The notes below the pieces were generated by a model, which saw only the letters and a list, made by a program, of their open reading frames with translations, was not told where the DNA came from and searched no databases. Position numbers and translations under genes: made by a program. DNA of 63,808 bases, the filler included, from Stramenopiles sp. TOSAG23-2 (Eukaryota): NCBI GenBank assembly GCA_900128395.1. It is 2 parts of 2 records of this genome, joined end to end, with 100 filler letters (N's around TTAATTAATTAA, not from the genome) between each part and the next. Parts side by side here need not be neighbours in the genome. Positions count along the whole stretch, not along the records: positions 1 to 31,857 come from LT649365.1; 1 more part is not named here. One strand, given 5' to 3'. Below, piece by piece: positions 5,800 through 33,586 of the stretch. The first letter of the stretch is position 1. Every line of letters starts with the position of its first letter.

Positions 5800-6534
5800 A
5801 ATTATAATATTATTACTCTAAATTATATTATATAAAGTTATACGTATATCAATATATCTATCTATCTATATATATTCACGCCGAGAAGAAAAACAAAACA
5901 CCACACACACACAGTTATATAAACCAATTATAAAACTAAAATTAAAAAAGAGACGTAGTTGTTAAATGTGTTTATATATTTCAATTTTGTTATCTCTCTC
6001 TCTCTATATATCTTCTATCTTCCATGTTTTTAAATATACTATGACATAAACCTGTATTATTAGTAGTCCATTTTTAGCTGGTTATAGCTGGTTAGCATTT
6101 AATCTATTTAAGTCACTGATGCATCCATTCATTCTTTTTGATTCATTTTTATAATTTATCAATCTGAAAAATCGTAATCAGTCGTCTGGCAGTGTTGTCG
6201 CATGATGTTGTGTACGCCTGCCGGGCCTGCCCTGGGCCTGCTATTATACAGTAAGGCCTAACGATGCTGTGTCACCCTAATATTATATGGCTGGACCAAG
6301 TGTAGCATAATATAAACCTCGTACACCTTAAAGTATAAAATATCTTCTTAATTCTTAAATTGTCGTTGTCTCAATATGATGAAATACTACTTATAGTATA
6401 ATATTTTTGTTTTAGTTGTCGTCACTCTCCTCAGCTCACCCACTCTCTTTCTCTCTCTCTTTCTCTCTCTCATGCAACACATTTACTAAAATAATTTTTA
6501 ATTTTTTTACTTCTTGTTTTTGAAAATATTAAAA

Positions 6535-8169
6535 TTAGTCCAATTGAATGACAGGACCAGTGTACGGCTCTCTTTCGACCTTGTATCGCAATGGATCTTT
6601 TGAACGTTCACGATTAGCTTGTTCTTTGTAACTGTAACCATATGGTTCACGCTTAACAATACGTCCCCAACCAGATTCAGTTTTTAACTCATTGTCTTCC
6701 CAGACAATACGGCCAGCGGAAATAGTTTTATCAGCTATACCATACATAGTCATACCTTCAAAGATATTAAAGTCAACAGCATGATGATGTGTATCTTTTG
6801 AAATAGTACGAGTATTATCACCATCCCAGATAACGATATCAGCATCACTACCTTCAGCAATACGTCCTTTACGAGGATACATATTAAATAACTGTGCTGC
6901 TTTTGTACTGGTTACTTTTACAAAATCTTGTGGAGACATATCAATGCCTTTTACACCTTTATGCCATACAACTGTCATACGATCCTCGATACCATTGCAA
7001 CCATTAGGAATCATCCTGAAGTCGTCCTTTCCCATTGCTTTTTGGTTTGCACTGAAAGTGGCATTATCCGTCCCTACCAAATCTAAACTTCCTTCCTTCA
7101 AACGTCTTATTAAATCATGTTTTGTATCTGGATCTTCACGTAATGGTGGTGACATTACATGTCCAGCAGCATGACGCCAATCTTTATCATAATACTCACG
7201 CCCATCTACTGCCAATGCAGCTGCAATTGGCTCTCCCCATACTTGAATACCAGCTTTTTTTGCACGTTCAACTTCAAATGCAGCACTTTTTGACATCACG
7301 TGAACGATGTACAATGGCACATTTACTTGATCTGCCAATGCAATTGCACGATGTGTTGCTTCCGCTTCAGTTTCCTCTGGTCTACTCATTGGATGCCCTT
7401 CCGGTCCCATAATACCTAAATCAACCATTGCTTGTTGCCCATCATCCACCATATCACCATTTTCAGCATGTACTTGTGCCAATGCCCCAATTTCCTTACA
7501 ACGACGAAAAATTTTTAAAATTTCATCATCATACATACGCAATACACCATTATATGCTAAGAAAAATTTATAAGAATTTACACCTAATTCATTTGTAACT
7601 GTTGCCATTTCTTCCAAAACACTTTCACTGTACCAGGTAACAGCCATGTGAAATGCAATATCACAATTAATTTTCGGAGTTGCTTTTTTGACCCAATCTT
7701 GATGCGCTTCGATCAACGATTGGCCACGTCCTGGAACAACAAAATCAATTAAACATGTTGTCCCACCTGCTACAGCAGCCGTTGTTCCGTAATGATAATC
7801 ATCAATAGTGGTAGTTCCCATAAAAGGCATTTCTAAATGTGTATGTGTATCAATACCACCTGGTATTACATATCTTCCAGTAGCATCCACTTCCTTAGCA
7901 TTTTGTGGCAAATCATCACTGGAAATTTGCCCTACTTTGATAATTTTTCCATCTTGAGTAAGTACATCCGCTTTGAAAATAGCATCGTGGTTTACGACTG
8001 TACCATTTCTAATAATCAATGGTGGTGCATCTTCATACGTACGTTCTGAACTGAACGAAGCTATTAAGTTATTATTATTATTACCAATAATTTTATTTAA
8101 ATTATTCCCATTTTTATAATTATTACGTATTGATTTTTTCGTAATATTTTTTATTGCAGATAAAAACAT
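6535..8169 (-). CDS. DPYS: Dihydropyrimidinase (D-hydantoinase) with a presequence-like N-terminal extension
   Basis: PGGIDTHTH metal site, SYKFF carboxy-Lys region, HAENG, HVMS, GTDN and GRIAEGSDADIVIWD. The first ~41 aa are basic and contain no acidic residues. Confidence 0.95.
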   Translation of the reverse strand: MFLSAIKNITKKSIRNNYKNGNNLNKIIGNNNNNLIASFSSERTYEDAPPLIIRNGTVVNHDAIFKADVLTQDGKIIKVGQISSDDLPQNAKEVDATGRYVIPGGIDTHTHLEMPFMGTTTIDDYHYGTTAAVAGGTTCLIDFVVPGRGQSLIEAHQDWVKKATPKINCDIAFHMAVTWYSESVLEEMATVTNELGVNSYKFFLAYNGVLRMYDDEILKIFRRCKEIGALAQVHAENGDMVDDGQQAMVDLGIMGPEGHPMSRPEETEAEATHRAIALADQVNVPLYIVHVMSKSAAFEVERAKKAGIQVWGEPIAAALAVDGREYYDKDWRHAAGHVMSPPLREDPDTKHDLIRRLKEGSLDLVGTDNATFSANQKAMGKDDFRMIPNGCNGIEDRMTVVWHKGVKGIDMSPQDFVKVTSTKAAQLFNMYPRKGRIAEGSDADIVIWDGDNTRTISKDTHHHAVDFNIFEGMTMYGIADKTISAGRIVWEDNELKTESGWGRIVKREPYGYSYKEQANRERSKDPLRYKVEREPYTGPVIQLD

Positions 8170-9016
8170 CTTGTTCCTTCTCTCTCTTTCTGTATGTTTT
8201 AATTTTTTTCTTTCTCCCTACAATGTTTTTTTCTTCTTCTTGTCTTTTCTCTCTCTGTTATATAATGGATTTTATATATAATACATCTGTATCTTATATG
8301 ATAGTATAGATACATATTTTACTAGGCCGGAAGGCGGCACGAAGGGCACAAGGCTTGTTAACCGAGGACACAATACAATAATATCTTTCGCAACTTTTTT
8401 AACTCTCTGCTTTACTAAAAAGGAGGGGAAACGATATTTTGTTCAAAATCCAGCTTTGCTGCCTTTGTTAGGCCTAGATTTGTCGTAATAAAGCTCCTAC
8501 AAAAAAAATAAGTATGCTGGTAATATGTACACTACCAGGTACACGGTTCTTATTAAAACGAGGTCACAACGTCAGAACGTTGGCACAAAATACAGGCGGC
8601 ATATTATCCTCGTATAATTATAATGATGTATTATCAGGATATTCTTGTACTATGGCCATCTTATTTAACCACTTGCAGTTGTTGTTGTAATTGTACGCAC
8701 GTGCAAAATAAAAAAGAACAGTTAAAAAGGTGCAAAGAAAAAATACATACATTATCATAGGTATAGATAGATAGATAGATAGAGCAAACAGAAACAATAT
8801 AAAGTAGAAGAGAAGAATTGAGCCAATTAAATTGATTTAAATCCTCAAATTTATACATATATACGGATATTATCGTATTACATAATTTATATTGTTACAC
8901 TTTAATTACTTATATATATACACATATATACAATAATATTAAATTGTAGATTATTTTATTTTCTTAGTATAGTACACATAATAATATTAATAATACATAT
9001 ACGTAAAAAAAATAAT
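8170..9016. promoter_or_regulatory. Probable bidirectional promoter between DPYS and the DPYD-UPB1 fusion
   Basis: 847-bp head-to-head intergenic region with a GC-rich patch at about 8325-8365 in an AT-rich background. The function is inferred from gene orientation. Confidence 0.6.
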
Positions 9017-12000
9017 ATGATGTTATCCACATTTGCGAAGCGTACTGCCAAAAATTCTACATCATCAACCAATAATAGCTTCATAAAAAACAGATTGTAT
9101 TTTACAAAGACGAAACCAACATTATTTGCACATCATGCAGAGAGAGGTACATCGTTTGAAGCAGATGATATCGTAAAACGTTTAGAATTAAATCCAACGG
9201 TTGAAAAAATGAACAAAGTTAGAGCCGTTCCAACGACTAGTACTAGAAAAGCAAGAAAACATTGGAAACGTATTAATAATGAATTAAAGCCACCAATGCT
9301 GAAGGATTTCACCGACGCTAAACATACCACTTTAAGCGAGCAAGCTGCTATTAAAGAAGCAGCTCGTTGCCTACGTTGTGTTGATGCACCTTGTCAACAT
9401 AGTTGCCCCACATCCATCGATATTAAAGCTTTTATTAGTGCAATATCAAATAAAAATTATTATGGTGCTGCAAAACAAATTATGAGTGACAATCCGCTAG
9501 GTTTATCATGTGGTATGGTCTGCCCAACAAGTGATTTGTGTGTTGGAGGCTGTAATGCTGAAGCAACAGAGGGTGGTGCTATTAATATTGGTGGACTGCA
9601 ACATTTTGCCACAGAAGCATTTATGAAAATGAATGTGGAACAAATTCATGATCCAAATTTAACGTCGTTGCCTGCATCCAAGGATATGAAAATTGCAATG
9701 GTTGGTTGTGGACCTGCCTCTATTTCAGCAGCAACATATCTAGCACGTATGGGTTACAGCAATATAACAGTCTACGAGAAGGAAAAAGAATTTGTTGGAG
9801 GCTTAAGTTCAAGTGAAATTCCAGGATATCGTTTGCCATACAGTGGTGTACACTGGGAAGTTCAACTGTTGAAAGATCTAGGTGTTAAAGTTGAAATGGG
9901 AAAAGCTTTAGGCGAAGACTTCACAATACAAAGCTTGAAAGATGATGGAGCTGCATCTGTATTAGTTGCATGTGGCTTACCACAGCCAATGCGTGAAGAT
10001 GTTTTTGATGGATTAGAGCCAAAACACGGTTTTTGGACATCGAAAGATTTTTTACCTAAAGTTGCGGCAGGTTCGAAATCAGGAATGTGTGCATCGAAAT
10101 GCAAATTGCCAAAATTGAACGGCAATGTCATCGTATTGGGCGCTGGTGATACTGCATTTGATTGTGCAACAAGTGCCTTGCGTTGTGGCGCAAAACGTGT
10201 TTATGTAGCGTTTAGAAAAGGTATTCATGGGATGCGGGCAGTACCCGAAGAAGTTGAACTAGCAATGGAGGAAAAGTGCGACTTAATGCCATTTCTTCAA
10301 GTAAATAGTGTAGTTACGAACAAGGATAATGGCAAAATTAAGTTAGTAGAATTTTGCAGATCCGAGCAGCAAGATGATGGATCATGGCATGTAGACAAAG
10401 AGCAAACGTGTGCTATAAAAGCTGACCATGTCATATCTGCATTTGGCAGTGTATTGGAAGATGAAAAGATTCACGATGCATTGACAGGGTTAGAAATTAA
10501 TTCATGGGGATTGCCAGAAACAGATCCAACCACACAACAAAGTAGTGATCCATCCGTATTTTGTGCTGGTGATGTTGCAGGTGTTGCACAAACAACGGTT
10601 GAATCAGCAAATGATGGTAAAGTAGCTGCATTAGGTATGCATAAATATTTAGAAGGTTTAGCTGGAAATAGCGTACCAGAAGATTTTTCTATGCCAGGTT
10701 TTTTCTCCCCGATCGATGAAGTAGACTTGAGTGTCGAAGTCTGCGGGTTGAAGTTCCCAAATCCATTTGGATTGGCTAGTGCGCCACCAACAGGTACCTC
10801 CGCAATCATGCGTCGTGCATTTGAGAATGGTTGGGGTTTCCTTGTAACGAAAACATATGGGTTGGATAAAGACATTGTTACAAACGTTTCTCCTCGTATC
10901 GTGCGAGGAACAACTGGCGGGGATTGGAATTTCGGTCCAAATCAAGCCTCATTTTTGAACATCGAATTAATTTCAGAGAAAACAGAGGAATATTGGCTTC
11001 AATCGATTCGCGAATTAAAACGTGATTATCCAGATCAAATATTAATCGCTAGTGTTATGGCAGCTTACAACGAAGAGGATTGGTGCGAATTAATACGCAA
11101 TGCAGTTGAAGCAGGTGCTGATGCAATCGAAATGAATTTAAGTTGCCCACACGGTATGGGTGAAAAAGGTATGGGTCTTGCATGTGGACAAGATCCAGAA
11201 ATGGTCGAACAAATATGTAGATGGGCAAAAAAAGTTGCTCCAAATACTCCTGTATTTGCAAAATTAACACCAAACGTAACAGAAATTACATATATAGCTG
11301 AAGCAGCTCAACGTGGTGGCGCAGATGGTGTCACAGCTACTAATACAGTTTCTGGGTTGATGGGTTTGGAAGAAGATGGCAAAGCATGGCCAAATGTTGG
11401 TGAGGAAGGAAAGACTACATATGGTGGATTTAGTGGTAATGGTATTCGACCAATTGCATTGCGAGCGGTCAGTGCAATAGCAAAAGCATGTCCTGGATTT
11501 CCAATATTAGCAACTGGTGGGATTGATAGTGCACATAGCGCAATGCAATTTTTACAAGCTGGTGCACATGCAGTGCAAGTATGCAGCGCGGTACAAAATC
11601 AAGATTCTACTGTTATTAAAGACTATATTACTGGAATGCAAGCCATGTTATACATGGAAGCTCGTAACGATCCAAAGTATAAAGGCCAATCTCCAACATT
11701 GCAGCCAAGGCATCAAAAAGGGAAAGCAGTTCAAGGTGCAGAAGAAGTAGATGACTTTAAACCATTTTTCGGAAAATATTATGAGGAGAAAATATTTGCC
11801 GCTGCAGATAAACGTTCACAGCAAGAATATATTTTGGATGACCAAGAAATTGAAGAAATTAAAAGCATTAGGCCTGTACCACCATTAAAACAAAAAGTCC
11901 GTACGGTTAATGAATTAATTAGCGCAGGTGTTCATCGTATTGGTGCATGGCATGAACTAAGTCAAGCAGAACAGGTTATAGCGAAAATTGATCCTTCTAT

Positions 12001-13576
12001 GTGTGTTAATTGCGGTTCATGTTTCAGCTCATGCAATGATTCTGGTTATCAATCTATTACATTTGACAGCGATACACATTTACCATACATTGTAGAAGAG
12101 GATTGTACAGGCTGCACTTTATGTTTAAGTGTGTGCCCAATTAATGATTGTATTACAATGGTGCCAAGGGATGGTCCATACATTCCAGATCGCGCAGTAC
12201 CATTAGGTGAAGCATTCGATGATAAGAAATGGGGTATGTTTTCAAAACTAGTAACTACGGCAGCACGTCGTCAATTGAGAAATGTTGCAACTAAACATAA
12301 AAAATCCATTTTAAACGTTAGGAATAATAACCATAACAAAATAATAATAGCAAATTTTGGTGTTGAAGTAGAAGATGACACGTTTGGGAACAGAGGATGG
12401 ACAAAAGGTGAGTTTCACAGTGTTGAAAACACATTGAAGGAGAAATTAAGCGAGGAAGATCATGCAAATGTAACTCGTGTATTATATGGTTTAAACCAAG
12501 GGAAAACAGTTGAAGAACTACCAATACCACAAGCTGCGCAAGACTTGGCTGACAAAGGTGAATTTGATATTACTTTGCATAAATTTGGTGCTGCTGCGGA
12601 GTCACGAGACCCAAGAATCGTTAGGTTTGGCGTGACACAAAATTCCATTATTACGGAAACACATTTATCAATTGACGAGCAATACGAATCCCTTGAGGAG
12701 AGACACAGGGAATTTGTCGAAGCAGCTGCTGCAGCTGGTACCAATGTTTTATGCTTTCAAGAAGCTTGGACTATGCCTTTTGCGTTTTGCACTCGGGAAA
12801 AACTGCCTTGGGTTAATTTTGCCGAATCTGCTGAAACTGGTCGTAGTACTAAATTTTTACAACGTTTGGCATTGAAGCATAACATGGTCATCGTTAGCCC
12901 TATTTTGGAACGTGATGAAGCACATGGTGGCACTATATGGAATACGGCTGTTGTTATCGGCAACAATGGTAATATCATTGGGAAACATCGTAAAAATCAT
13001 ATACCTAGAGTCGGGGATTTCAATGAAAGTACATATTACATGGAAGGTAATAATGGCCATCCAGTGTTTGAAACTCAATTCGGAAAAATTGCTATCAATA
13101 TCTGCTATGGTAGACATCACCCATTGAACTGGATGGGATTTGGTTTGAATGGGGCTGAAATTGTTTTTAACCCAAGTGCTACAGTTGGTGCATTATCAGA
13201 ACCAATGTGGAGTATTGAAGCACGATGTGCTGCGATTGCTAATAATTACTTCGTAGCAGGTAATAATCGAGTAGGAACAGAAAGTTTTCCAAACGAATTT
13301 ACAAGTGGTAATAAGCAACCAGCAAAGAAAGACTTTGGGCATTTCTACGGCTCATCATATATTGCTGGTCCAGATTCAAGTAGATGTCAAGGATTATCAC
13401 GCACAAGAGATGGTATTGTAATTGCAGAAGCTGATTTGAACTTATGCCAACAAGTAAAAGATTCGTGGGTCTTCCAAATGACTGCAAGATACGACGATTA
13501 TGCAAAATTATTAACAGATTATTGTAAACCAGATTTTACCCCACAAGTAGTAAAAGATCCATCATTATCGGACTAG
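9017..13576 (+). CDS. DPYD-UPB1: Fusion: dihydropyrimidine dehydrogenase (9017-12235) + internal presequence-like linker (12236-~12360) + beta-ureidopropionase (~12360-13576)
   Basis: DPD motifs: [46 protein letters not shown], the [21 protein letters not shown] catalytic loop and two C-terminal 4Fe-4S motifs ([23 protein letters not shown]). UPB1 nitrilase-fold Glu-Lys-Cys triad motifs: [30 protein letters not shown]. There is no stop codon between the two. Confidence 0.93.
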
Positions 13577-13802
13577 ATATATATATATACACACATGTAA
13601 TGTATAATATGTATACGTACATTTTAATAATAATATAATATATGTGATAACACATACAATCATTAAACCAGATTTTACCCCACAAGTAGTAAAAGATCCA
13701 TCATTATCGGACTAGATATATATATATACACACATGTAATGTATAATATGTATACGTACATTTTAATAATAATATAATATATGTGATAACACATACAATC
13801 AT
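13525..13802. repeat. 139-nt tandem duplication covering the fusion stop codon and 3' flank
   Basis: taaaccagattttacccc...ggactag...cacatacaatcat occurs at 13525 and 13664. Confidence 0.9.
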
Positions 13803-13818
13803 ATTCTTTTTGAAGGCC

Positions 13819-14110
13819 TGAAGGAAAAAAGTGAAATTTATTTTTTTGTTTTCAAGATTTTATTACTCGTACAAAATAACATAGATATGCATTTTATTAT
13901 AATATCATGTATGCATATTTAAAATAAAAATCGATTGGTTAAAATCTAAAGTTATAATAATTTTTGAAGGAAAAAAGTGAAATTTATTTTTTTGTTTTCA
14001 AGATTTTATTACTCGTACAAAATAACATAGATATGCATTTTATTATAATATCATGTATGCATATTTAAAATAAAAATCGATTGGTTAAAATCTAAAGTTA
14101 TAATAATTTT
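13819..14110. repeat. About 145-nt tandem duplication
   Basis: tgaaggaaaaaagtgaaattt...taaagttataataatttt occurs twice. Confidence 0.9.
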
Positions 14111-14494: not shown

Positions 14495-15652
14495 CTATGC
14501 TTTACTTCTTTGATCATACTTATTAATTATATCTTCAACTTCATTTTTAAAATTATCATAAAATCTTTTACCTTCCATTGGTCTTGAATGAAACGTAAAT
14601 GGAAGGCAAGATTCTGCACCAGCACATAAAATTTTGGACAAATCATCAATAGATAATTGGACATCTTGAAGCAAATGTAACACTTCAATTGTCGGACTTG
14701 GCTCCCTTTCACTATCCCCAGATAGTAGAAAATTATCACTATTTAAACTACATTTAATACCATTTTCATGCATAATTTTGATTGGATGCTCATTATATGT
14801 TTTTACTTTCCATCCTACATTACTTGTTAAACAGCACTCAACAAAAATATTATTATCAATAACTTTTTTCATTAAATCATCTCTTTTATATAATTGTATT
14901 CCATGACCAATTCTTTTAATACAATCTGAATTTACTGCAATATCTAAATTATCAATAGAACTTTTAAATCTTTCTTCAATCGGCCACTCTCCAGCATGCA
15001 CTGTCACCGGGACATTTAATCTTTTCGCTTCTTTAATTCCATCCATCATCAATGACAACGGGTAACTGCCTTCATCTCCAGCAATATCGTATCCTACAAC
15101 ACCAGGGGTACGATCTAAAAATTCACTAGCTAATTGGGCCATTTCGACTGAATGTTCCGTTGGATAGCTGCGCAAAGCACAAACTATAACGCCTCCCTCA
15201 ATATTTACCTTTTCTTGAGCTTTAGCATACCCATCAATGACACTTTTTATGGCATCTTTCTCTGTCAGACCTTCCAACGTATGTAAGCTTGGGCAAAATC
15301 GTATTTCACACACCTTCACGTTCTCCCTGGAACACCTATATAATATATCTGCAGTTGCATCAATTAATTCTTCTTTCGTTTGGAGAAATCTATTGCAAAA
15401 ATCAAATATGCTCCAATTGCCTTTTGCACTTTGCTTATTACCACCAGCAATTTGCTTAATTTTTCGTTGTTGCAAATGTGGCCTGAGTTCCTCAGGTTTA
15501 GTGACATCCAATTTTATATTGCGTGCTTCAGCACGTTTGAAAATAAATTCACTTGATAATGAACCATCTAAATGTAGATGCAGTTCTGTTTTTGGAAGCA
15601 ATCTGGCTAATTCTTTGATAGTTGTTGTTGTATTCTTTGTTGTCCCTGCCAT
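14495..15652 (-). CDS. ADA: Adenosine deaminase family enzyme
   Basis: LPKTELHLHLDG, EIRFCP, DIAGDE, TVHAGE, RIGHG, ECCLTSN and LNSDN motifs. Confidence 0.9.
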   Translation of the reverse strand: MAGTTKNTTTTIKELARLLPKTELHLHLDGSLSSEFIFKRAEARNIKLDVTKPEELRPHLQQRKIKQIAGGNKQSAKGNWSIFDFCNRFLQTKEELIDATADILYRCSRENVKVCEIRFCPSLHTLEGLTEKDAIKSVIDGYAKAQEKVNIEGGVIVCALRSYPTEHSVEMAQLASEFLDRTPGVVGYDIAGDEGSYPLSLMMDGIKEAKRLNVPVTVHAGEWPIEERFKSSIDNLDIAVNSDCIKRIGHGIQLYKRDDLMKKVIDNNIFVECCLTSNVGWKVKTYNEHPIKIMHENGIKCSLNSDNFLLSGDSEREPSPTIEVLHLLQDVQLSIDDLSKILCAGAESCLPFTFHSRPMEGKRFYDNFKNEVEDIINKYDQRSKA

Positions 15653-18962: not shown

Positions 18963-21900
18963 TTAAACATTCTCAAATAAATATACAGGCGCTTTTTTTG
19001 TACTAGTACTACTAAATTCCATATCATACGTATCGTCATCCATATTTTCATCGTCATTTTTCTTGGTAAAACTTGCATTTTCAGGAGGATGCCAATGAGT
19101 CTCCCCTACCCCAGGACTAATCCATGGAACCGACTCAGAATTTCCTTGGGGATCGCGCTGGATATTGGTAATTTTATTCGCCCTGCGCGCTGGACTTAAA
19201 CTGCGATTACGACTTGAAACAGTTGAACGTCCATATGTATTTTCTGGACTTAAAGAAGTATTATGCGCGTGAATTGAAGGCGTTCCGAATGGAGATGATA
19301 ATCTTTTTGTATCTTTTATCGTCCCTCTTGCTGAAATATTTCTTTCGAAGTTTGGTATATTAATCTCCACGCTGCCAGTTCTATGCAATCGTATGACACC
19401 ACCGCTACTACTCCTAATTGCAGATACAGTCTTTACACCTTTCTTTTTTTTTGATTTCATTCCTTTCGATTTTTTACTTCTACCACCTCTCCTTGTCATA
19501 GTAGGACTTTTCGTTCTTCCTCTTGCGGAGCGTCGAATTGCTTGTGCCCTTTCTTTGATATCGGAAAGTAACATTTCTGTTTTTTGATGGTCTCGCTGGG
19601 CCTTGTTTACTAAAGCAGTTATTCTTTTTACGGCTATATCTGATTTTTTTTGCTTTTTCAACAATCGATCAGCCAGTTGCTCATGCCTTGATAATATTAA
19701 GCCTTCTCTCCATATTCTAAATGCGCGGTATTTTTTTCGTTGTACTAAATATCTATGCATGACCCGGAAAAGAAAAATGGTTGCCTCTTTCCTTCTTTTT
19801 GAATCAGAAGTTTTCATTTCCTCTATTTGTTTACTCTGCACCATAACCATCCGCTGTTGCAAAGTCTTTATTTCTCGTGTCATCGCTTCCGACCATACGG
19901 CTTCCTCCTCATGTTCAGACTTTAAAGCAACGACTGTACTTTCCATTTTTTCCAAATAACCTTTATTTTCTTGCTCTTTTTGCTCCCATTGCTCTTTGTT
20001 TTTACGTAAAATATTTCTAGACCATCTCCAACCGTATACAGCCTTTAATTTCTGTGCCCGTAATTCCACTAATTTATTTCCTGTTCGTTGAACATGTGCT
20101 TTCAGTATCTCTTTATAATTTTCCTCAACCGTTATGCGTGCCCATTTATGGAAATACGATCGACGAGCTGATTTTAAATCTCGAACAAAAAGCCTTTCCA
20201 AAGTTTTAATGGCAGTTTGATGAGAAGACGCTGTTTGCCACATTTCTTTCCATTTATGATAACCATTGTATAATTTTATTTTCATCAGCTTCAATGTTAT
20301 ATGTGAAAATCTTATCTTAATTTTTTCTTCTTCAAGTTCATCATGCACTTTTTCCTCCATCTCCAATTGTTTATATCTCCGACAAATACGCTTAAATTTG
20401 TACCAATAAAAGTGCAATTTTTCCTTTGCAATATGACCAATTACACGCTTTATTAAACTTCCTCTGTAATTTAGACTGTTTATCTCTTTCACTAGTCCTT
20501 TCCACTTTCGCATCGCAGCAGCGATGGCCTTTTTACCAAGCTTCATTGCAATTCGCCGTAAGAAAATTTCTTCATCTTGTGCTCTAATTCTTAAAAATTT
20601 CCAATGTTCAAAATATGACTTTTCGATTTTTTTATTAAGAAGTTTAAAAACTCGATCAAATTGCCTTGCAGCTATAATCTTGGCTTTTTGACTATGAATT
20701 TTTTGCAACGCGGCTGCTTCAGCAAACCTTGAATCAATTTTCATTGTAAAGTTTTTCTCTAAAATTAGATGGTGAATCAAGTGTGTATGAGTTGTCCAAG
20801 CTCTAAAAGCTTGAGAAACTTTATTTCTTTTCCAAACCATTGAAAGGTGGTGCATTTTGATAGCTAACTCTCTACCTGCTTGCGCCCACCTGTAAGTCGG
20901 ATGAGTTAGTGAAACAGTGACCCATCTGACAAACGCTTTTGCTACTAGCATCTTCGATTTTCGACGGAGTGGCAATAACATTTTAGATATAACTAACGCA
21001 TGAAATTTACGTTTTTCACACATAATATGCCATTTTTTCACAGCCTGAAACAACTGCTTCTTCCTCCATCCTTCTAAGATCGAAAAAATACTTTTAATTG
21101 AGTACAATTGCCCTTCCCGATTTTTGATCACAGTTGCATTGTAATCTACCCATTTTTTCCAGCCTCGTGCAAGCCGACTTTGATCATAACGCTGAAAACA
21201 CGTTTTAATTAGATTAAATGACCGTTTTAAACCAAATTGATTCTTGAATTCATTTTGTTTGTCGAAATGAACGAATCGCCTAAATCGCATAAAAGCAGCA
21301 AATTTTCTACGTCGTTTTAGGCTAAGAATCACCTTGTCTAAAACCCTTGTACCGACTACGTAATTACCACTTTTCTTTTTCAAGTGGTTTGTAAATAATT
21401 TCCATCTGTTCATTCCTTTCATCAAACGGGATCGTATGTTGACATTTATACATCTTATTACAGTTTGTCCAATCTGTCGTTTTTTTGTTTGTCGAAAGCG
21501 ATTTGTGTAGTCACTTTCAAGTGTACTTCTTTCTTTTAACATTTTTTCTTCCATCATTTTATGTTCGTCAGCTAATGTTTCGACTTTTTTAGAATGTGCC
21601 ACTTCTAATCTTTTACGTAATTCTTCACTTTGTATAGCTTTGGTAGCAAACCACCATCGTAAGTATCCTCTTAACATCATTTTCTTTCGATAAGAACGAA
21701 TTATTGCTGTTAGCAGTAAATGTGCTTTTAGTAGATTCGCCTTTGCCATAGCTGCTTCAAATTGTTGTTGCAAAGTTCCATTTTCTATGTTGAACTGTTC
21801 TTGTGCTTTCTTTTTTTCCATCTCAACTAATGATTTTTCTGACTTCAGCATTTTCTTTTCCTCTTCCATCTTTTGCTTTTCCTCCTCAGCCCTTTTTCGC

Positions 21901-24900
21901 TCTTCAGCATACTTCTGTTGTAATTCCTCCATTTCATTTTTGAATTGGTCTTCCAAACTGCTCATTTGTATCAGACCGTCCTCTTTGGTTTGATTCCTTC
22001 TTGCAGCTTCTTCTTCCATATCCACAAAATGCAACCATTTGTCATACGCACGTCGTTTCTGTCGATTAATGCGCAACAGCACTTTGGTAAACATGTTTTT
22101 TGCATGTACAATTTGCATATTGTGCTTGAATCCTTTCAATTCAGCATTTTTTCTCCATTGGTTTAATGATGCAACCATTTGCATCCGCCAAGAACGTAGC
22201 ATGGTGTTCATAACGTAACGTGCTTTCATTTTAAGTGTTTTCTCTTTAATAATCTCAGCACCCCAGACGTCGAATGCATTGTTCAATGATGACATCCTCC
22301 ATTTCTCCGAGGACTTTGATAAAATTAAAAATGCACGAGAGCGACGACCATTATACCGTTGAACGTGAATTTTAAATGCAGCAATACCCCGGGACATCAT
22401 CAAGCGAGTATTTCCATCTTCAAGTTTGCTCAAAAGGCCTACTACACGCGCTTTCCTTGCGGCCAATTCCATGTCCTTCATGCTTTGTTCATGCAACTCG
22501 GTCACTTTTGCCAAATTTTCTTGATGCGATTGAGTAACTGATTCCATTTCTTTACGCAGTTTACCTTCAACTTCTGCAACTCTTGAGAAGTGACAGAATT
22601 TCGTCCATTTTGCCCAAGCGCTTTGGTAGGCAGCTTTTTCTTTGCTCACTATCATTGCAATGAAGCGCGCCGCTACCATATTTTCATGGTTTTGCCTTTG
22701 TAGTTCCAAAGCTGCATTATTACTGGCTTTGCGTTGCTCCTCTAGGATAGATGTTAAGCGGAATCGATCCCATTGGCGGAATGATTTGGCTATTTTCCCT
22801 TGAATATGTTTTCTTACAGCATTAACAATAAATCGAGTGGCTTCTGCATGTCTAACGGCAAAGTCGGCTTCATCTCTCGTGCGATCCACCCACCGTAAAA
22901 ACCATACCATCATTTTCTTTTTAATATGCCGTTTAATGCTTACAACTACGAACTTAACAGCACTATTTACTTCTTTATTCTTTATTCCTAAAAATTGATT
23001 TGCATTGAACCATTGTACAAACGCTGTATTTAAACGTTTCTTATAGTGACGCTGAATCTGTACTACACAAAATCGTACTGCTGCATCTCGCTTAATTCTT
23101 TCTTCCATTAAAATTCTACTGACCTCACACCAATGTGCGAATCCATCCGAAAGCCGCCCTTTTATGTAATTTCGTATGCAATTAACTATATATTTGGTAG
23201 CAGAATGGACACGAAGAGCTTGTATTTTTAAGCCTCTGGTAACATTGACCCAATATCGAAATTTTCGGGTTTTCACCCTTTGCAAGCCCTCTTCCATCTT
23301 CATGTACAAATATGTACATTTGCGCCTTTTTCTACCATCATGCTGTCGCAATTTGTTCACTTTAGAAAACCATTTACGGAATGCATGGGCCATTCTCTTA
23401 TCCATATATTGTCGCACCTTATTGACGATAAATTTTTGAGCCATTCCAAACTTCATACGCTGTTGTCGCACATACATTGAATAATATACCAATTGACGAA
23501 AGCCTGAGTGTAAGCCACGGACGGCATGTGCATCAAAAATTTTATTTAATTTTTGAGCACCCAGTCTCGCATTTTCAACAAATTGTCGGACTAGTAGACA
23601 ATTCATCCTCCAAGTTTGGAAACCACGATTCAAAACGCTGTTATCAATCTTTGTTAAGTAATATCTGTATGTTCTACGGACTCTTTCTTCTTTCTCTGAA
23701 ATTTCTCTAGCAATGGTGTGCCATCGACCAAAATATTTTCTCATTTTTTTCTTGACATAGCGCATCATTCCTCGGTAAGTCAACACCGCAGACACTTGTC
23801 TTTGAGTTTGACTAATTTGACCTAAAAGACTACTTCTGTTTGTCGACCATGTTGTATTTTTCCATGATGAAAATGCAGACATTTTCTTTTCATTTCGTAA
23901 CGTGTGATGCCTAATAGCCCATACTTTTACAATCAAACGGGCGCACAAGCGTTTTCGTAACTCTTCATGCGTTCTGACAATGGATTTCTTCTCTTGCATA
24001 TGTTTGCTATGTAAACTCAAAAGTTCCTTTTTTTTTCGTTCTTCCAACTCGTTAATCTGCGACATAGACTGTTTGCGGAAAATGCCATACTTTTCCTCAC
24101 TTTCTTGCCTGTACTGTCTATGTTTTTGCTCTGTTTCTTCTATTGATTTCAAATGTTGTAATCTAATACTCTCGACAATTGCTTTTCTATGCCACGTGGA
24201 GAATGCAAAATACATCTTCTGATTTAAAAGACGCATTAAAACGCGTTTTGCAATACGCACGGAAATTTCTTTTTCTTTTTTCCATTTTGCAAAGACTAAC
24301 CAAGCACGCCATCCCATCATTAGCTGTTTGTTTTCTACTCGAAGCATGACCCTTCCAGCAATCTTTCGAGCTCGCTCTCGTTCCGCATTCAGTTTTGTGG
24401 AAATACGACAGAAAGACAACCATTGTCTCCACCCAATTAACAAGTTTCTATTTTCCATTCGTTTCAAAACCCTTCTAGCCGATCGAGATCCATGTCTAAT
24501 TCTTTCATCATTTCGTATGGATCGGTTCACATAAGTCATCCACACTCTCCATGCTTTTAATTTATTCTTATTTTCCCAGCGTTGCAAGACTCTTATAGCA
24601 GCATTTGTCCCCGTATTGACTTTATGCTTTTCTCTTAAATCCATACCTACAAATCTAGTCCAAGTTCTCCATGCTTTCAAGAATATTTCGTTTTTCCATC
24701 GCTTCAAGACACGCCTTGCGTTGTCTCGCTTTCCTTCCATCACGTGTATATCTTTCGTAGCGCGTAGCATGTTCAGTTTAAATACTCCCATTGCTCTTGC
24801 CATCATACGTATTCTCCAGCTTTCTACAACTTGCTTTAAAAATAATGCAATGCACAAGGAATTGAAATATGCTGTTCCACCTTCCTCTCCAAGTTTGAAT

Positions 24901-27437
24901 ATTTTTGCACGCATTTGTAGGCGGGACAGTTTGTTTCTTTGAACCTGTAATAATCGTGCATCCTTAGCAATTGTTTTTCTGTGATCATCTGCTTCCATCA
25001 TTTTTAATTCTGCTAATGCTCTAGCTTCAGCCACTTCTCGTTTCATACCAAGAGCTCCGATTTGCAATTTCTTTCTCTCTTTTTCACCAGTGTCTAACTT
25101 CATACGCAAAGACTGTATCTCGGCTCTAAATTCTTCCCTTTCGTTTCCTTCGATACGATCAACTTCTAACTTTTCTTGTCGAAGCAGGGACATTTCTTCC
25201 TTTAACATTTCTTGTGTTTGAAGCAATTCATTTGTTTCCCGCTGTATCAAATCTAATTTTTGTTGAGCGCGGAAGGTTTCAGTTTTTATCTTAGTTTCAT
25301 ATGCAGCAGCCGCAGCAGCATCATATGCTTTGATAATTTCACCCCGAGATCCCATATATGCAGGATTAGTACTTTGTTCCGCGTTGTCGCTTTCCCCATT
25401 TCTATGCCTTGACGATAACCGCTTCCTTTTTTCCGCTTCAATTTGACGTGCAGTCTTTTGTATTAAAAGTTCTATTTTCTTTTTATTTGTTTCTTGCTCA
25501 TGTTTCAAAGCCTTTTCTAAAATGGCAGCATGTTCCTCTATAGCAGCTAGTCTGGCATCAAGGTTTCCATTTTCTTCCACAAGTACATGATTTTTATTTT
25601 TTACATCCATTATTTCTTTTTCCGACTCTTTTATTTTCTTTTGAATTTCTAATTGATATGCTTTGTGCGCGTCTCTCCATCTATTTGTTTCCATTTGTTC
25701 TCTTTCTAATTTTTTCTGTAATTCCAAAGACATCTCTAATATATCTTCATATCTTTTTTTCTGCGATTGTATCTCTCTTTTTAAAATGTCTTTTGTTTCC
25801 GTAAACTGTTTTGCTATTTCATTACGTTCTTTCAACACTGTATTATTTTGCTGGACCAATTCATTCACACTGTTTTTAAAAGTTTTGCGGACAGCTAGTG
25901 CACTTAAGCCAGCATTATGTTGCCAAGTAAGAAAAAGTTTTTGAACATTTCGTCTAGCCCAATTAGTTAAAATACGTGAAATTACATGCACGCTTTCATA
26001 CTGCGATTTTTTCTTTAAAATGTTCATCACATTACTTTCTAAATCCCCATTTCTTTGCTCAGCATGTTTCATTTTCTCTTTCAAACGCCGCCTAGCTTCC
26101 ACACCCGCCATTTTTGCTACTTTTAGTTTCCATTTATTTAAAGATCTGATCATTTTTAACTTTTCCAGACTACGCGCGTGTGACATAACTTGCACTGCAC
26201 CCGATTTGCGGATTGTATCTCTCATTATTTTCTGGGTATTCGTTAATTCAGTTGCTAATTGTTGTATGCGACCTACAATTCCATCAATCCCTTGAGAAAT
26301 TGTCGTCGTTTTAGATTGCGTTGAACCGTGACTCTTCTTTAATTGTGCAAGGGCTTTTTGCCTTTCGTTTGCTGCAGCTAGTAATTCATTACCAGATTCT
26401 TGCAACACCCCGATTGCACCTTTTGCAGAATTAAACTGCTGTATAAGAGCTTCTTGCTCTTTTTTCGTTGCATTTAACTGGGTGCGGACATTTGCTAGTT
26501 CCGAGGTAGTGTTCTCTAATTCTTGTGCTATTTCCAGTTTTTCAGTTTTCAAAATTGTTGCTTCTCGTTGTGTTTTAGACATCTTATGAAAAAGTTGCTG
26601 TTGTGTAGCTTCCATGACTTTCCCAACAGCTTCAGCAGTCTGTGCGTGGCTTGCTTGACCATCCCTTTCAAGCCGTAACGTAAACTCTAACCTCTCAAGT
26701 TTCTCTCTGAAATCCTGATTTTGGGAAATGTCATCCCACAAGTCATCATAAACATTTTTCTCATGCTCTACTATTCTGGAACGTTGTTGTTGACGTGACA
26801 AGCTCATGATTCGACTGTTATTGTTGTCATTATTATTATTATTATTACTACTACTGTTATTGGCATTATCTTGCAGGTCTATGTAAACACTACCACTTCT
26901 ACGGACATGAACCCTGCTTCTATTATTATTATTACTGTTGTTGTTATTTTTTGTATTAAAACTGCTTGAAACCATACCCTCATTATTATCTTCATTATCA
27001 CTGAAATTGTTATCTTCAAAAATACTAGTATAAATAGAATCATGTGACTCGTTTTGGCTATGTTCAGGTGCTGGTAACAACTCCTCTTCTAATAACTCCT
27101 CAATATTGAACTGATTATTATAATTATAACTTTGCCTTTGTGGAGACAATAATGCATTGTTCTGTTGCAATTTCATTAGCCATGATGCGTATGGTATTTT
27201 ATCACGCGTCAACATTTCTCCAGAAATCAAAAGCATTGTATCTTCATATGGAACACCAAGGACAGAGGACACAGTGTTACAAAAAACTTCAGTTGATAAT
27301 ATCCCATGATTTTCTCGATCATATTCTTTACAAGCTGTAAATATTTCATCGGCATTTTCTAAGACAACACGTTGCAAAGCCAGTGCATATTCTTTTGCAT
27401 GCATGTCATCTTCTTCTGTTCCTATGTCAACCTCCAT
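18963..27437 (-). CDS. Giant (~2820 aa) coiled-coil protein with many Sfi1-like Trp repeats; possible degenerate N-terminal EF-hand
   Basis: Dozens of (A/G)(F/W)xxW(K/R)-type motifs at roughly helical-repeat spacing (KAWRTWTRF, FAFSTWHRK, RGFQTWRMN, HAFRKWFSK), long coiled coils and the N-terminal DRENHGILSTEVF. Likely ATG at 27437. Confidence 0.7.
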   Translation of the reverse strand: MEVDIGTEEDDMHAKEYALALQRVVLENADEIFTACKEYDRENHGILSTEVFCNTVSSVLGVPYEDTMLLISGEMLTRDKIPYASWLMKLQQNNALLSPQRQSYNYNNQFNIEELLEEELLPAPEHSQNESHDSIYTSIFEDNNFSDNEDNNEGMVSSSFNTKNNNNSNNNNRSRVHVRRSGSVYIDLQDNANNSSSNNNNNNDNNNSRIMSLSRQQQRSRIVEHEKNVYDDLWDDISQNQDFREKLERLEFTLRLERDGQASHAQTAEAVGKVMEATQQQLFHKMSKTQREATILKTEKLEIAQELENTTSELANVRTQLNATKKEQEALIQQFNSAKGAIGVLQESGNELLAAANERQKALAQLKKSHGSTQSKTTTISQGIDGIVGRIQQLATELTNTQKIMRDTIRKSGAVQVMSHARSLEKLKMIRSLNKWKLKVAKMAGVEARRRLKEKMKHAEQRNGDLESNVMNILKKKSQYESVHVISRILTNWARRNVQKLFLTWQHNAGLSALAVRKTFKNSVNELVQQNNTVLKERNEIAKQFTETKDILKREIQSQKKRYEDILEMSLELQKKLEREQMETNRWRDAHKAYQLEIQKKIKESEKEIMDVKNKNHVLVEENGNLDARLAAIEEHAAILEKALKHEQETNKKKIELLIQKTARQIEAEKRKRLSSRHRNGESDNAEQSTNPAYMGSRGEIIKAYDAAAAAAYETKIKTETFRAQQKLDLIQRETNELLQTQEMLKEEMSLLRQEKLEVDRIEGNEREEFRAEIQSLRMKLDTGEKERKKLQIGALGMKREVAEARALAELKMMEADDHRKTIAKDARLLQVQRNKLSRLQMRAKIFKLGEEGGTAYFNSLCIALFLKQVVESWRIRMMARAMGVFKLNMLRATKDIHVMEGKRDNARRVLKRWKNEIFLKAWRTWTRFVGMDLREKHKVNTGTNAAIRVLQRWENKNKLKAWRVWMTYVNRSIRNDERIRHGSRSARRVLKRMENRNLLIGWRQWLSFCRISTKLNAERERARKIAGRVMLRVENKQLMMGWRAWLVFAKWKKEKEISVRIAKRVLMRLLNQKMYFAFSTWHRKAIVESIRLQHLKSIEETEQKHRQYRQESEEKYGIFRKQSMSQINELEERKKKELLSLHSKHMQEKKSIVRTHEELRKRLCARLIVKVWAIRHHTLRNEKKMSAFSSWKNTTWSTNRSSLLGQISQTQRQVSAVLTYRGMMRYVKKKMRKYFGRWHTIAREISEKEERVRRTYRYYLTKIDNSVLNRGFQTWRMNCLLVRQFVENARLGAQKLNKIFDAHAVRGLHSGFRQLVYYSMYVRQQRMKFGMAQKFIVNKVRQYMDKRMAHAFRKWFSKVNKLRQHDGRKRRKCTYLYMKMEEGLQRVKTRKFRYWVNVTRGLKIQALRVHSATKYIVNCIRNYIKGRLSDGFAHWCEVSRILMEERIKRDAAVRFCVVQIQRHYKKRLNTAFVQWFNANQFLGIKNKEVNSAVKFVVVSIKRHIKKKMMVWFLRWVDRTRDEADFAVRHAEATRFIVNAVRKHIQGKIAKSFRQWDRFRLTSILEEQRKASNNAALELQRQNHENMVAARFIAMIVSKEKAAYQSAWAKWTKFCHFSRVAEVEGKLRKEMESVTQSHQENLAKVTELHEQSMKDMELAARKARVVGLLSKLEDGNTRLMMSRGIAAFKIHVQRYNGRRSRAFLILSKSSEKWRMSSLNNAFDVWGAEIIKEKTLKMKARYVMNTMLRSWRMQMVASLNQWRKNAELKGFKHNMQIVHAKNMFTKVLLRINRQKRRAYDKWLHFVDMEEEAARRNQTKEDGLIQMSSLEDQFKNEMEELQQKYAEERKRAEEEKQKMEEEKKMLKSEKSLVEMEKKKAQEQFNIENGTLQQQFEAAMAKANLLKAHLLLTAIIRSYRKKMMLRGYLRWWFATKAIQSEELRKRLEVAHSKKVETLADEHKMMEEKMLKERSTLESDYTNRFRQTKKRQIGQTVIRCINVNIRSRLMKGMNRWKLFTNHLKKKSGNYVVGTRVLDKVILSLKRRRKFAAFMRFRRFVHFDKQNEFKNQFGLKRSFNLIKTCFQRYDQSRLARGWKKWVDYNATVIKNREGQLYSIKSIFSILEGWRKKQLFQAVKKWHIMCEKRKFHALVISKMLLPLRRKSKMLVAKAFVRWVTVSLTHPTYRWAQAGRELAIKMHHLSMVWKRNKVSQAFRAWTTHTHLIHHLILEKNFTMKIDSRFAEAAALQKIHSQKAKIIAARQFDRVFKLLNKKIEKSYFEHWKFLRIRAQDEEIFLRRIAMKLGKKAIAAAMRKWKGLVKEINSLNYRGSLIKRVIGHIAKEKLHFYWYKFKRICRRYKQLEMEEKVHDELEEEKIKIRFSHITLKLMKIKLYNGYHKWKEMWQTASSHQTAIKTLERLFVRDLKSARRSYFHKWARITVEENYKEILKAHVQRTGNKLVELRAQKLKAVYGWRWSRNILRKNKEQWEQKEQENKGYLEKMESTVVALKSEHEEEAVWSEAMTREIKTLQQRMVMVQSKQIEEMKTSDSKRRKEATIFLFRVMHRYLVQRKKYRAFRIWREGLILSRHEQLADRLLKKQKKSDIAVKRITALVNKAQRDHQKTEMLLSDIKERAQAIRRSARGRTKSPTMTRRGGRSKKSKGMKSKKKKGVKTVSAIRSSSGGVIRLHRTGSVEINIPNFERNISARGTIKDTKRLSSPFGTPSIHAHNTSLSPENTYGRSTVSSRNRSLSPARRANKITNIQRDPQGNSESVPWISPGVGETHWHPPENASFTKKNDDENMDDDTYDMEFSSTSTKKAPVYLFENV

Positions 27438-28259
27438 CGTTATCAATTTGTAATGTATCAAGCAAGAATTGCCATATATTTCTATATGGATAATGATATA
27501 TACGTATTTAAATATATATAAGTTGTTAATTATTTATTGCAAGTGCTATTATTGGATTTCTTCTTCTTCTTCATTCTTCTTGTAAAGTTTATTCGTATTG
27601 TTATTAATGATATATGCCTGTTAGGAGATAATTTATTAATTATACTTTACGATAAAAAATAATATCACACACACACAGTTAAAGATTCTGCACGCCAATA
27701 TCGATATTGCCAATATTAATATTATCGTAAATAATAATAAAGCTGTAGACTAATAATACGTGGTACATTACAATATGCAGTAATATCGAAAAAGATAAAA
27801 GTAACAAATAAAAAAAGTCTGTAGACGACTAGTATTCTGGTATGCGATGGTATTTTATATAAAACGACTAAATACGAGGAGCCATGGTGCTATTGTGCTG
27901 GTAGCCGGATCAACGAATTATTCCATAAATGATACAAAATATTATCTTATTAATATTTATTTGGATACATTTCGGAACATATTTTGGAATAAAAAAAAAA
28001 ATAGTTGTTTCCACCAGCCAGCGAACCCCAGAACCCTAATTGAATTTGTAAATATATAATAATATAATATAGATTAACACAGATTTACGAAGTAGGAATC
28101 TATAGTTATACATAGTATATTTTATACAACAAAATTTGTATAAAGAATTATTTCAAATCATCAAATAGATACTCAGTTTTTAGATTTGATAAATTCGAGT
28201 AGTATATATTTTATATCTAAACAAATTAAATCGTTAATTAAATTTACATCATCGAAAAA

Positions 28260-31857: not shown

Positions 31858-31957
31858 NNNNNNNNNNNNNNNNNNNNNNNNNNNNNNNNNNNNNNNNNNN
31901 NTTAATTAATTAANNNNNNNNNNNNNNNNNNNNNNNNNNNNNNNNNNNNNNNNNNNN
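31858..31957. other. Artificial contig linker (N44-TTAATTAATTAA-N44)
   Basis: 100-nt gap with a six-frame stop cassette. Sequence on either side need not be adjacent in the genome. Confidence 0.97.
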
Positions 31958-32347
31958 ATTGTATATATCCGATTTGTGCATTTATAAGGCTGATGAAGGA
32001 AAGATAGTCGTCTGAAAGGAAAGATTGACGTACCCTTACTATACTGATGGTTTTACACACTTTTTTTTTTAATAACTTTTTTTTTTTTATTATCTCAAAT
32101 CTCAATTATTTAAATAATTATTTATTTAAAAACTTGAATATATGACTTTATGCATGGATGGATATACGACACAACAAAAATATTCATTTATTGCCTACTA
32201 TATATAATAATACACTCTCAAGATATTATCATCAATTAGTGGAGAATTGAATAGAATAGCAAAGCATATTTATTGTTTTTGTACACAAAAGTATTACAAC
32301 ACAACAATATATGTATTTTTATATATATTGCTAAATTATTTATTACT

Positions 32348-33586
32348 ATGAGCAAATTAAATAATATTGTATTATTATTATTATCATTCATATTAACTGC
32401 AACCAATATAAATTCAGCAATAACAAATGATGATATTTATTCCACACTAGGTTTTGATCAAGAAGTTTTATTTGCTAACAACAACAATAAAAACAACAAC
32501 GACATTACCATTGATTGGACAGATGTATCAACAATGGATGTATCTAATCGTGCACCATTTCCGTCAAATTTAAAACGTAAATCATTTTTTGATCGTTTGC
32601 CAGCAGAAGCAGAAAATACCGTACGTAGCCCTGTATGGACTTTAAGTACCATGTCAGCTGGTTTTTGTGTAGATTTTCAAACGGAATCATCATTTTTGCA
32701 ATTAAATATAACATATAGATATGAAACGATGTCCATGTGGCATTTTCCAGCAACAGGATGTAGCGGAATGGATTTATATAATTTTGATTACAATACAAGT
32801 ACATGGAGATGGACAAGCACGACAACAATAATGAAATATCCACAATCAATTAATCATATGATAACAGTCCCTGCACAAACAACACATCCAACAGAAATAC
32901 CATTATATCGTTTACATTTACCAACATATAATGGAATTAAATATTTAGCGATTGGGCATGATACACGTTATCCATTAATTCAACCAAAACAAAAAAAACT
33001 TATTGAGAATCATAATAATAACAAAAAACCGATTGTTTGGTATGGTACAAGTATATTACAAGGTGCAGTTGCTAGTCGTCCAGGTATGATATTTACAAAT
33101 TGGATATCAAGAAATATACAACGTGAAATTTATAATTTTGGTTTTTCTGGAAATGGTATCATGGAAATTAATGTAGCAAATTATTTAACTACAATTGATG
33201 CAAGTGTTTTCATCATAGATTGCTTACCAAATATGAATGCAACTTTAGTTACAAATCGTACTATTCCACTTGTTGATTACATCAGAGAAAAACATCCAAC
33301 AACACCAATTATATTAGTAGCAGGTACATGGTACGGAGATCATTGGTTCGATCCAACACCAAATGATTCAAAACGACAAGCATTGGTTGAAAAATATAAT
33401 GAATTGATTGCAAAGACTGGTGATAAAGATCTATATTTAATAGACAATTCAAAAGATGAATTATTTAATGAAGAAGTATTAATTAATCCAACTGTTGGTG
33501 GAACACATCCATCTGATTTAGGACATATGGAAATAACAAAATTTTATACCAAATATTTAAATGATTTGTTGAAAAAGTATGAGTGA
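32348..33586 (+). CDS. Secreted SGNH/GDSL hydrolase, bacterial GxDLY type
   Basis: Signal peptide MSKLNNIVLLLLSFILTA; motifs SGMDLY, WYGTSILQG, NFGFSGNG, DCLPN and GTHPSD. The in-frame ATG at 32348 is preferred over the track start. Confidence 0.85.
   Translation: MSKLNNIVLLLLSFILTATNINSAITNDDIYSTLGFDQEVLFANNNNKNNNDITIDWTDVSTMDVSNRAPFPSNLKRKSFFDRLPAEAENTVRSPVWTLSTMSAGFCVDFQTESSFLQLNITYRYETMSMWHFPATGCSGMDLYNFDYNTSTWRWTSTTTIMKYPQSINHMITVPAQTTHPTEIPLYRLHLPTYNGIKYLAIGHDTRYPLIQPKQKKLIENHNNNKKPIVWYGTSILQGAVASRPGMIFTNWISRNIQREIYNFGFSGNGIMEINVANYLTTIDASVFIIDCLPNMNATLVTNRTIPLVDYIREKHPTTPIILVAGTWYGDHWFDPTPNDSKRQALVEKYNELIAKTGDKDLYLIDNSKDELFNEEVLINPTVGGTHPSDLGHMEITKFYTKYLNDLLKKYE

Follow-up and report, generated by a model that had tools for sequence, protein, structure and literature searches.

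An apparently undescribed cluster of reductive pyrimidine catabolism genes, with mitochondrial-type presequences, in a probable MAST-4 flagellate

Animals, plants and Dictyostelium break down uracil and thymine with the same three enzyme families (DPYD, DPYS and UPB1, or PYD1-3), and to our knowledge the genes are unlinked in animals and plants. Fungi and bacteria are well known to cluster their genes for nutrient catabolism. The pathway's gene numbers are far apart in Bodo saltans (PMC4728078), and the Arabidopsis enzymes, which serve nitrogen recycling, are distributed over plastid, secretory system and cytosol (PMC2713857). Bacterial pyd clusters (pydABC) hold the whole pathway at one locus (PMC7332683), and in Schizosaccharomyces pombe urg1-3 are neighbouring genes induced by uracil (PMC2174524; PMC4347624). 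Here we analyse a 63,808-nt stretch of the Stramenopiles sp. TOSAG23-2 assembly GCA_900128395.1 (hereafter the window), which encodes dihydropyrimidinase (DHP), DPD and beta-ureidopropionase (UPB1) side by side. Its host is an uncultured marine bacterivorous flagellate with all three genes for uracil and thymine breakdown adjacent, which is unusual for a eukaryote.

Our best reading, to which we give a probability of roughly 0.64, is a lineage-specific, vertically inherited cluster of three genes in MAST-4 whose products form a mitochondrial pathway; the open reading frame (ORF) that joins DPD to UPB1 in the window would be a collapsed gap. The window packs all three activities into 7 kb, as the first-pass annotation had reported, while its count of two genes gives way to three in L002, an independent 8,018-nt contig that is 98.9-99.6% identical to the window and in which the cluster spans 7.5 kb. 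The order DHP<-, DPD->, UPB1-> is consecutive in both assemblies, that is, at least three adjacent, non-homologous genes of one pathway. For a genome of 15,500 genes, approximately the number in MAST-4A (PMC8237690), the chance of consecutive order for this named triple is ~6/15500^2 = 2.5e-8, so the linkage is not random.

The catalytic motifs of the familiar eukaryotic enzymes are intact here, and the genes are consecutive rather than unlinked as in animals and plants. The locus resembles pydABC in holding the pathway at a single site, but the bacterial DPD is encoded by two ORFs and this one by a single chain; the genes here occupy both strands, have upstream regions of their own and are of eukaryotic ancestry; they do not form an operon, and unlike the pyd case neither a transporter nor a beta-alanine aminotransferase was found among the 28 window ORFs scanned. 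Fungal clusters (urg1-3 and the yeast allantoin and galactose genes) likewise provide eukaryotic linkage for one nucleobase-type nutrient; the urg genes, however, are not DPD, DHP or UPB1, and the host here is a phagotrophic stramenopile. In the open-access literature we found no report that the reductive pyrimidine pathway is clustered in any eukaryote, or that its three enzymes are all predicted as mitochondrial. The word "pyrimidine" occurs 0 times in the MAST papers PMC8237690 and PMC8163842, and the excerpt of PMC5778133 yielded no gene-order data. We regard the conserved cluster, with its mitochondrial-type targeting, as real or likely and as apparently undescribed.

The first-pass calls of DHP, a single-chain eukaryotic-type DPD and a nitrilase-fold UPB1 were borne out by structure matches, profiles and motifs, and all three are intact members of their families, with predicted activities on dihydrouracil, uracil and ureidopropionate, respectively. 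The best PDB match of DHP is the Dictyostelium-type 2FTW (609 bits; bacterial enzymes reach at most 465), and all of the residues that we take to be metal ligands (HxH, Lys, His, His, Asp) are present as H109/H111, K201, H234, H290 and D368; this ligand set and a TIGR02033 score above cutoff mark a dihydropyrimidinase (EC 3.5.2.2) and not a CRMP pseudo-enzyme. The exact DHP sequence occurs on 60 contigs, and none of 12 proteins scanned (11 of them from a DHP search of 50% representatives) joins DHP to DPD or UPB1 domains. On the plus strand, one ORF of 1519 aa (9017-13576) encodes all of the DPD domains and then a CN_hydrolase domain. The DPD part matches 1GT8/1GTE over its full length (1297 bits, with residues 49-1064 covered by 1GT8; prokaryotic subunits reach at most 175). 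It has the Pfam order N-terminal Fe-S, FAD/NADPH, FMN barrel and C-terminal Fe-S in one chain, four Cys-rich Fe-S motifs, and NLSCPHG, whose Cys (C710) is presumably the active-site residue, all as in an NADP+-type eukaryotic DPD (EC 1.3.1.2). The UPB1 part scores 517 bits against human 8PT4/6FTQ, 510 against 2VHH and 90 against N-carbamoylputrescine amidohydrolase, and its E176, K253 and C290 motifs, presumably the Glu-Lys-Cys catalytic triad, fit a nitrilase-fold beta-ureidopropionase (EC 3.5.1.6). Coordinates are collected in Table 1.

Table 1. Features of the pyrimidine catabolism locus, in window positions
Feature	Position	Strand	Remarks
DHP, step 2, 544 aa	6535..8169	-	TIGR02033 558 bits vs cutoff 393
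DHP presequence, residues 1-41	8047..8169	-	free of Asp/Glu up to residue 41; charge +6 over first 30
Divergent DHP/DPD spacer	8170..9016		847 nt; aligns to L002 with small indels
10-mer TTGCGAAAGA	8384..8393	-	single copy in window; also L001 257-266, L002 6304-6313
Single-chain DPD, step 1	9017..12234	+	window codons 1-1073; species' gene 1075 aa, ending GKQ-stop
DPD presequence, residues 1-41	9017..9139	+	fits presequence rule; animal homologues lack the extension
DPD/UPB1 deletion junction	12234..12235	+	window lacks L002 5942-6419, 478 nt
UPB1, step 3, 446 aa, own Met	12236..13576	+	nitrilase fold
UPB1 presequence, residues 1-43	12236..12364	+	inside fused ORF; PDB match from residue 58
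Two exact tandem duplications (139 nt x2, 146 nt x2)	13525..14110		single-copy in L002 and L001
Adenosine-deaminase-family gene (ADA)	14495..15652	-	PF00962; tail-to-tail with UPB1

The window is AT-rich, intron-poor eukaryotic DNA (GC 33.2%), and a Pfam scan of its ORFs identified Spt5, histone deacetylase and SET-domain genes among the cluster's neighbours. Homologues at ~80% identity carry the source label 'Stramenopile-MAST_4', and MAST-4A cells have a mean GC of 33.9% and compact, intron-poor genomes (PMC5269757). We therefore place the host in MAST-4, where it is probably MAST-4A-like.

From a Met at residue 1074 of the 1519-aa ORF runs a basic stretch without acidic residues that resembles an N-terminal targeting peptide, so two genes were suspected behind the ORF. 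In agreement with this, the DPD of L002 has 1075 aa and ends KKWGKQ*, a C-terminus that we adopt from this contig and from the DPD cluster members; a 469-nt spacer follows, and UPB1 then starts from its own ATG. The junction in the window is in frame, with 1 nt of microhomology. In another contig, L001, UPB1 also stands by itself and is preceded by an in-frame stop. Among the 15 listed of 55 DPD cluster members, 12 end in KKWGKQ, one in KWGI and two are internal fragments, and none continues into UPB1; the 15 listed of 49 UPB1 members include 11 standalone 446-aa forms on 86 contigs, some of which could be the same data assembled more than once. The window's exact 446-aa UPB1 (P0083) stands alone on 11 contigs, the sister species keeps the DPD stop at the same position, and every other record examined encodes DPD and UPB1 as separate ORFs. 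Searches of 5.8 billion clusters returned no fused DPD-UPB1 protein, exact look-up with two start positions did not find the 1519-aa protein, and the two domains occur together in 0 of 36 long UPB1-domain proteins and in 0 of the 120 listed of 1,256 DPD matches.

Nor was the fused ORF reproduced independently in other DNA or RNA. A contig from seawater run X4 (L002 5127-6093) crosses the DPD stop and extends 140 nt into the spacer, with the window's allele at L002 5933. The joint from 5941 to 6419 is not listed in any of the four runs aligned to L002, two of which (X1 and X2) have almost no cover on L002 and none at the junction; X4, read to 55%, has almost no UPB1 cover and X15 none, which carries no information. 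The X15 RNA contig ends at L002 5933, in what looks to us like adapter sequence, and is thus silent on read-through.

The window also contains ten exact head-to-tail duplications of 85-146 nt (at 2582, 13525, 13819, 15699, 17003, 17318, 18082, 55679, 56214 and 56780), of a kind typical of assembly joins; the pair at 13525..14110 are assembly artefacts. Such duplications break Spt5 (1220 aa without the extra copy) and a DUF7802 gene (one ORF of ~417 aa), and in both genes tested the frame becomes continuous once the extra copy is omitted; frameshifts and fusions in this assembly therefore need independent confirmation. The MAST-4 genomes in the literature were co-assembled from many amplified cells and later rescaffolded (PMC8237690). 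Taken together, the stop and spacer in L002, the standalone UPB1, the lack of any fused protein in these searches and the duplications argue for three genes, not two around one promoter. The fused ORF is very probably an assembly artefact, and a DPD-UPB1 fusion as the species' state is most likely false: of the earlier description of DHP head-to-head with a fusion, the coordinates and the spacer stand and the fusion does not. Two causes of the deletion were considered and set aside: splicing (the ends of the segment read C...AG or GC...TA; with GC...AG ends the excised piece would be 479 nt and out of frame) and stripped N runs, which were not established as a certain cause, 88 N being still in the window.

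All three enzymes begin with extensions that satisfy a simple presequence rule (no Asp or Glu in the first 25 residues, net charge of at least +4 in the first 30), and the PDB match of DHP begins only at residue 50. The rule is satisfied by 10 of 11 MAST-4 cluster enzymes versus 1 of 23 other window genes, and by none of the 20 named homologues from animals, amoebozoans, plants and bacteria. We infer that DHP, DPD and UPB1 are all imported into the mitochondrial matrix; the Arabidopsis enzymes, in contrast, occupy three compartments and the animal enzymes lack extensions. Presequence-bearing UPB1 and DPD clades extend more widely (P0216-P0245, P0101-P0103, P0110, P0117, P0164, P0201), which suggests that a mitochondrial form of the pathway may be widespread in marine protists. 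Other stramenopile pathways have been relocated to mitochondria, as demonstrated in Phytophthora by tagging (PMC5715807). Mitochondrial glycolysis and serine synthesis are likewise usually cytosolic pathways that have acquired presequences, with some of the genes fused or linked (PMC5715807), but those are different pathways with tagged localisation, whereas ours is predicted.

Physical coupling of pathway steps is also found in DHP-UPB1 fusions, which make up 26 of 36 long UPB1 proteins (P0034, P0040, P0054 and 23 more) with labels that include Tetrahymena, Ichthyophthirius and Mucochytrium; there, unlike here, a single chain carries steps 2 and 3. The UPB1 domains of these fusions fall outside the MAST-4 UPB1 group, so the fusions represent a separate solution, and pathway coupling thus seems to have arisen more than once. 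Of 17 such fusions checked, 12 satisfy the presequence rule. One DHP-UPB1 row labelled Ectocarpus groups with Mucochytrium. A literature search found no paper on this family; a Paramecium proteomics preprint had no match in its main text, and its supplements may localise the ciliate fusion.

Record sizes and gene numbers in three further MAST-4-like species point indirectly to linkage as a MAST-4 trait. In the sister species (DPD 88-90%), DHP (P0012), DPD (P0346) and UPB1 (P0373) are all listed at 25,394 nt, DPD (g10010) and DHP (g10011) are both listed at 387,670 nt, and pieces of DPD and UPB1 are both listed at 4,808 nt. In the second species (82%), DPD and UPB1 are both listed at 40,404 nt, and in the third (80%, labelled 'Stramenopile-MAST_4') both at 33,254 nt, as proteins 2534 and 2537. 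DNA was read for L003, where the sister-species UPB1 (99% to P0088) lies tail-to-tail with a deaminase gene as in the window (ADA at L003 1395-2593). Two loci that are not MAST-4-like, L004 and L011, have neither DPD nor DHP nearby in more than 8 kb upstream of UPB1. Overall, DPD and DHP accompany UPB1 in 1 of 28 UPB1 loci, most of which span 1-6 kb and are uninformative.

The first-pass idea of a single divergent promoter fails, since in both L001 and L002 an upstream region separate from that spacer precedes UPB1. The spacer between DHP and DPD is inferred to hold the promoters of both genes, and this layout is ordinary in the window, where divergent arrangements account for 8 of 24 adjacent gene pairs and their spacers measure 493-888 nt. 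The ~135 nt adjoining the UPB1 start are identical between L001 and L002 and probably include the UPB1 promoter; the rest of the DPD-UPB1 spacer is highly polymorphic (L001 1-260 versus L002 6140-6300). The 10-mer TTGCGAAAGA stands upstream of both DHP and UPB1 (the latter in L001 and L002). The two spacers have four 10-mers in common (three independent), versus 0-2 in 22 control pairs; we rejected a shared promoter motif on this basis, as the excess was picked post hoc and is not significant, and TTGCGAAAGA, chosen after the fact, is only a lead as a candidate shared regulatory element. RNA contigs from X15 cover DHP and DPD and skip bins 2145-2680 of the divergent spacer, and six RNA runs from four studies contain 0.69-0.77 of the words. 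These matches are compatible with expression, and also with DNA carry-over.

The trees were quick ones, of 142 and 27 rows for UPB1 and of 57 rows, none of them bacterial, for DPD. The MAST-4 UPB1 rows group with a Shimodaira-Hasegawa-like approximate likelihood ratio test (SH-aLRT) support of 93 in the 142-row tree, inside a 37-row clade (99) of which many members bear N-terminal extensions. The MAST-4 DPD rows likewise form a clade (100), inside a 17-row group (100) that is apart from animal and holozoan-like rows and in which most complete members bear extensions, and the two trees agree on the order of four species. The cluster thus appears to have been assembled from eukaryotic genes, a reading that fits vertical descent within MAST-4. 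An approximately unbiased (AU) test of MAST-4 with the fused-protein UPB1 domains (p-AU 9e-120) was set aside as confounded, the fused rows not grouping together.

Two kinds of transfer could explain the linkage instead. A bacterial pyd operon passed to the flagellate, or a bacterial contaminant, has in its favour the existence of the pyd clusters themselves (PMC7332683) and of nitrilase-type UPB1, at 64-66% identity, in Myxococcota and Lujinxingia. Against these we set the single-chain DPD, a DHP nearer to eukaryote structures, the Spt5, histone deacetylase and SET-domain neighbours, and the UPB1 trees, in which a clade with two named bacterial rows is separate from MAST-4 (99). A clade of MAST-4 with bacterial UPB1 was rejected at p-AU 0.0014, in a test of five rows chosen after the tree had been seen and only two of them named as bacteria. 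A prokaryote genome scan, of a type that finds close relatives only, gave no close UPB1 and one weak 43-residue match, and the viral contigs searched held no DHP relative. A bacterial origin is thus highly improbable: the split DPD of a transferred pyd operon was not found, UPB1 does not nest within the bacterial homologues tested, and the first-pass view of a eukaryotic cluster is upheld. Alternatively, the mitochondrial-type genes may have passed together, still linked, from one marine protist lineage to another, as has been proposed for nitrate-assimilation clusters (PMC6400420). The 37-row UPB1 clade is rich in presequence-bearing marine forms and lies away from the Mucochytrium and ciliate fusions, and the 17-row DPD clade shows the same pattern of extensions. 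This remains very unlikely, however, as the rows are almost all without species labels, which allows neither a donor nor a conflict with the species tree to be demonstrated, L004 and L011 have no DPD or DHP near UPB1, and an ancient duplication followed by differential loss is an equally good fit.

The other alternatives accept the descent and dispute either the meaning of the linkage or the nature of the fusion. The genes may be mere neighbours that stay together because gene order changes slowly in MAST-4, neither regulated jointly nor held in place by selection today: divergent pairs are common, 847 nt is not short for a spacer, the shared 10-mer is not significant and the UPB1-ADA adjacency is kept in the sister species as well. 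We consider this unlikely, given a chance of ~1e-8 for the origin of a consecutive named-pathway triple and a DPD-UPB1 linkage that appears to last to ~80% protein identity, in one species with two gene numbers between the pair. That the fused ORF is a rare real allele is unlikely, and is retained because the cut is so clean, the source reads being unseen. In this scenario, distinctly unlikely in our view, a clean deletion of the DPD terminator and the UPB1 promoter would have left a rare or local allele whose tandem product enters the mitochondrion whole and is then cleaved at the internal presequence; internal cleavage of tandem mitochondrial precursors occurs in yeast. In its favour, breakpoints at both ORF ends, in frame and with the enzymes whole, are selectable and rare for a random mis-join; the microhomology is a single nucleotide, genuine N gaps persist elsewhere in the window (31858-31957), and a different pairing from the pathway, DHP-UPB1, is fused in most of the long proteins. 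Such an allele has to contend with the empty protein searches, the window's exact UPB1 standing alone elsewhere, ten other artefactual joins in 64 kb and the stop kept at the same place in sister species. We regard as quite improbable the combination of a mitochondrial pathway from a conserved, co-regulated cluster with a real newborn fusion allele, still polymorphic in the sea.

Several points weigh against the vertically inherited mitochondrial cluster with a collapsed gap. Linkage in the relatives was read from matching record sizes and gene numbers, not DNA, with DHP checked in one of the three species and no background rate for gene-order conservation in MAST-4; the sister-species UPB1 is g13847, not beside g10010 and g10011, and no listed UPB1 member is on the 387,670-nt record. 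The UPB1-ADA pair in L003 means that DPD and UPB1 are not the sole neighbours to be retained. The localisation call is a home-made, crude rule rather than a trained predictor, and MAST-4 UPB1 monophyly has an SH-aLRT support of only 41 in the 27-row tree. As for the gap, the deletion is clean (it ends 7 nt before the DPD stop and 1 nt before the UPB1 ATG, in frame), the gaps in cover of X1, a possible source, and of X2 leave no source-cell information, and the cluster members visible are the listed fractions given above.

Downstream of beta-alanine, the aminotransferase and semialdehyde dehydrogenase are located in the matrix in animals. In the working that we propose for the three-gene mitochondrial cluster, DPD would use NADPH in the matrix to reduce uracil or thymine to the dihydro form, DHP would open the dihydropyrimidine ring, and UPB1 would release beta-alanine or beta-aminoisobutyrate with NH3 and CO2; an aminotransferase and semialdehyde dehydrogenase could then carry the products on to acetyl- or propionyl-CoA. 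A likely use is to handle the nucleobase load of digested bacterial prey, and for a bacterivore we judge prey-nucleobase disposal with carbon use to be at least as likely as nitrogen recovery. The linkage would probably have been retained for joint control or inheritance, and the fused ORF would be a gap collapsed at assembly. Bacterivores of the MAST-4 group are abundant in the ocean, which makes the locus a potential marker for prey nucleic acid processing and ammonium release. Existing genomes and metatranscriptomes can be used to test linkage and co-expression, with the caution that this assembly can yield in-frame "fusions" of neighbouring pathway genes.

The ADA-family gene scores 177 bits against TIGR01430, under the cutoff of 217, and has no presequence; it is possibly a fourth nucleobase-catabolism member or a mere neighbour. 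Elsewhere in the window, a 2,800-aa ORF (18963-27533, minus strand) has no Pfam match. A GxDLY/GDSL hydrolase (32255-33586, plus strand), a DUF1810 gene (41121-41753, plus strand) and a TauD-family gene (42018-43214, minus strand) belong to families that we take to be common in bacteria. Finally, a protein of 743-761 aa (33820-36105, plus strand) has a GH19 chitinase-like domain at its C-terminus and possibly serves to digest prey cell walls.

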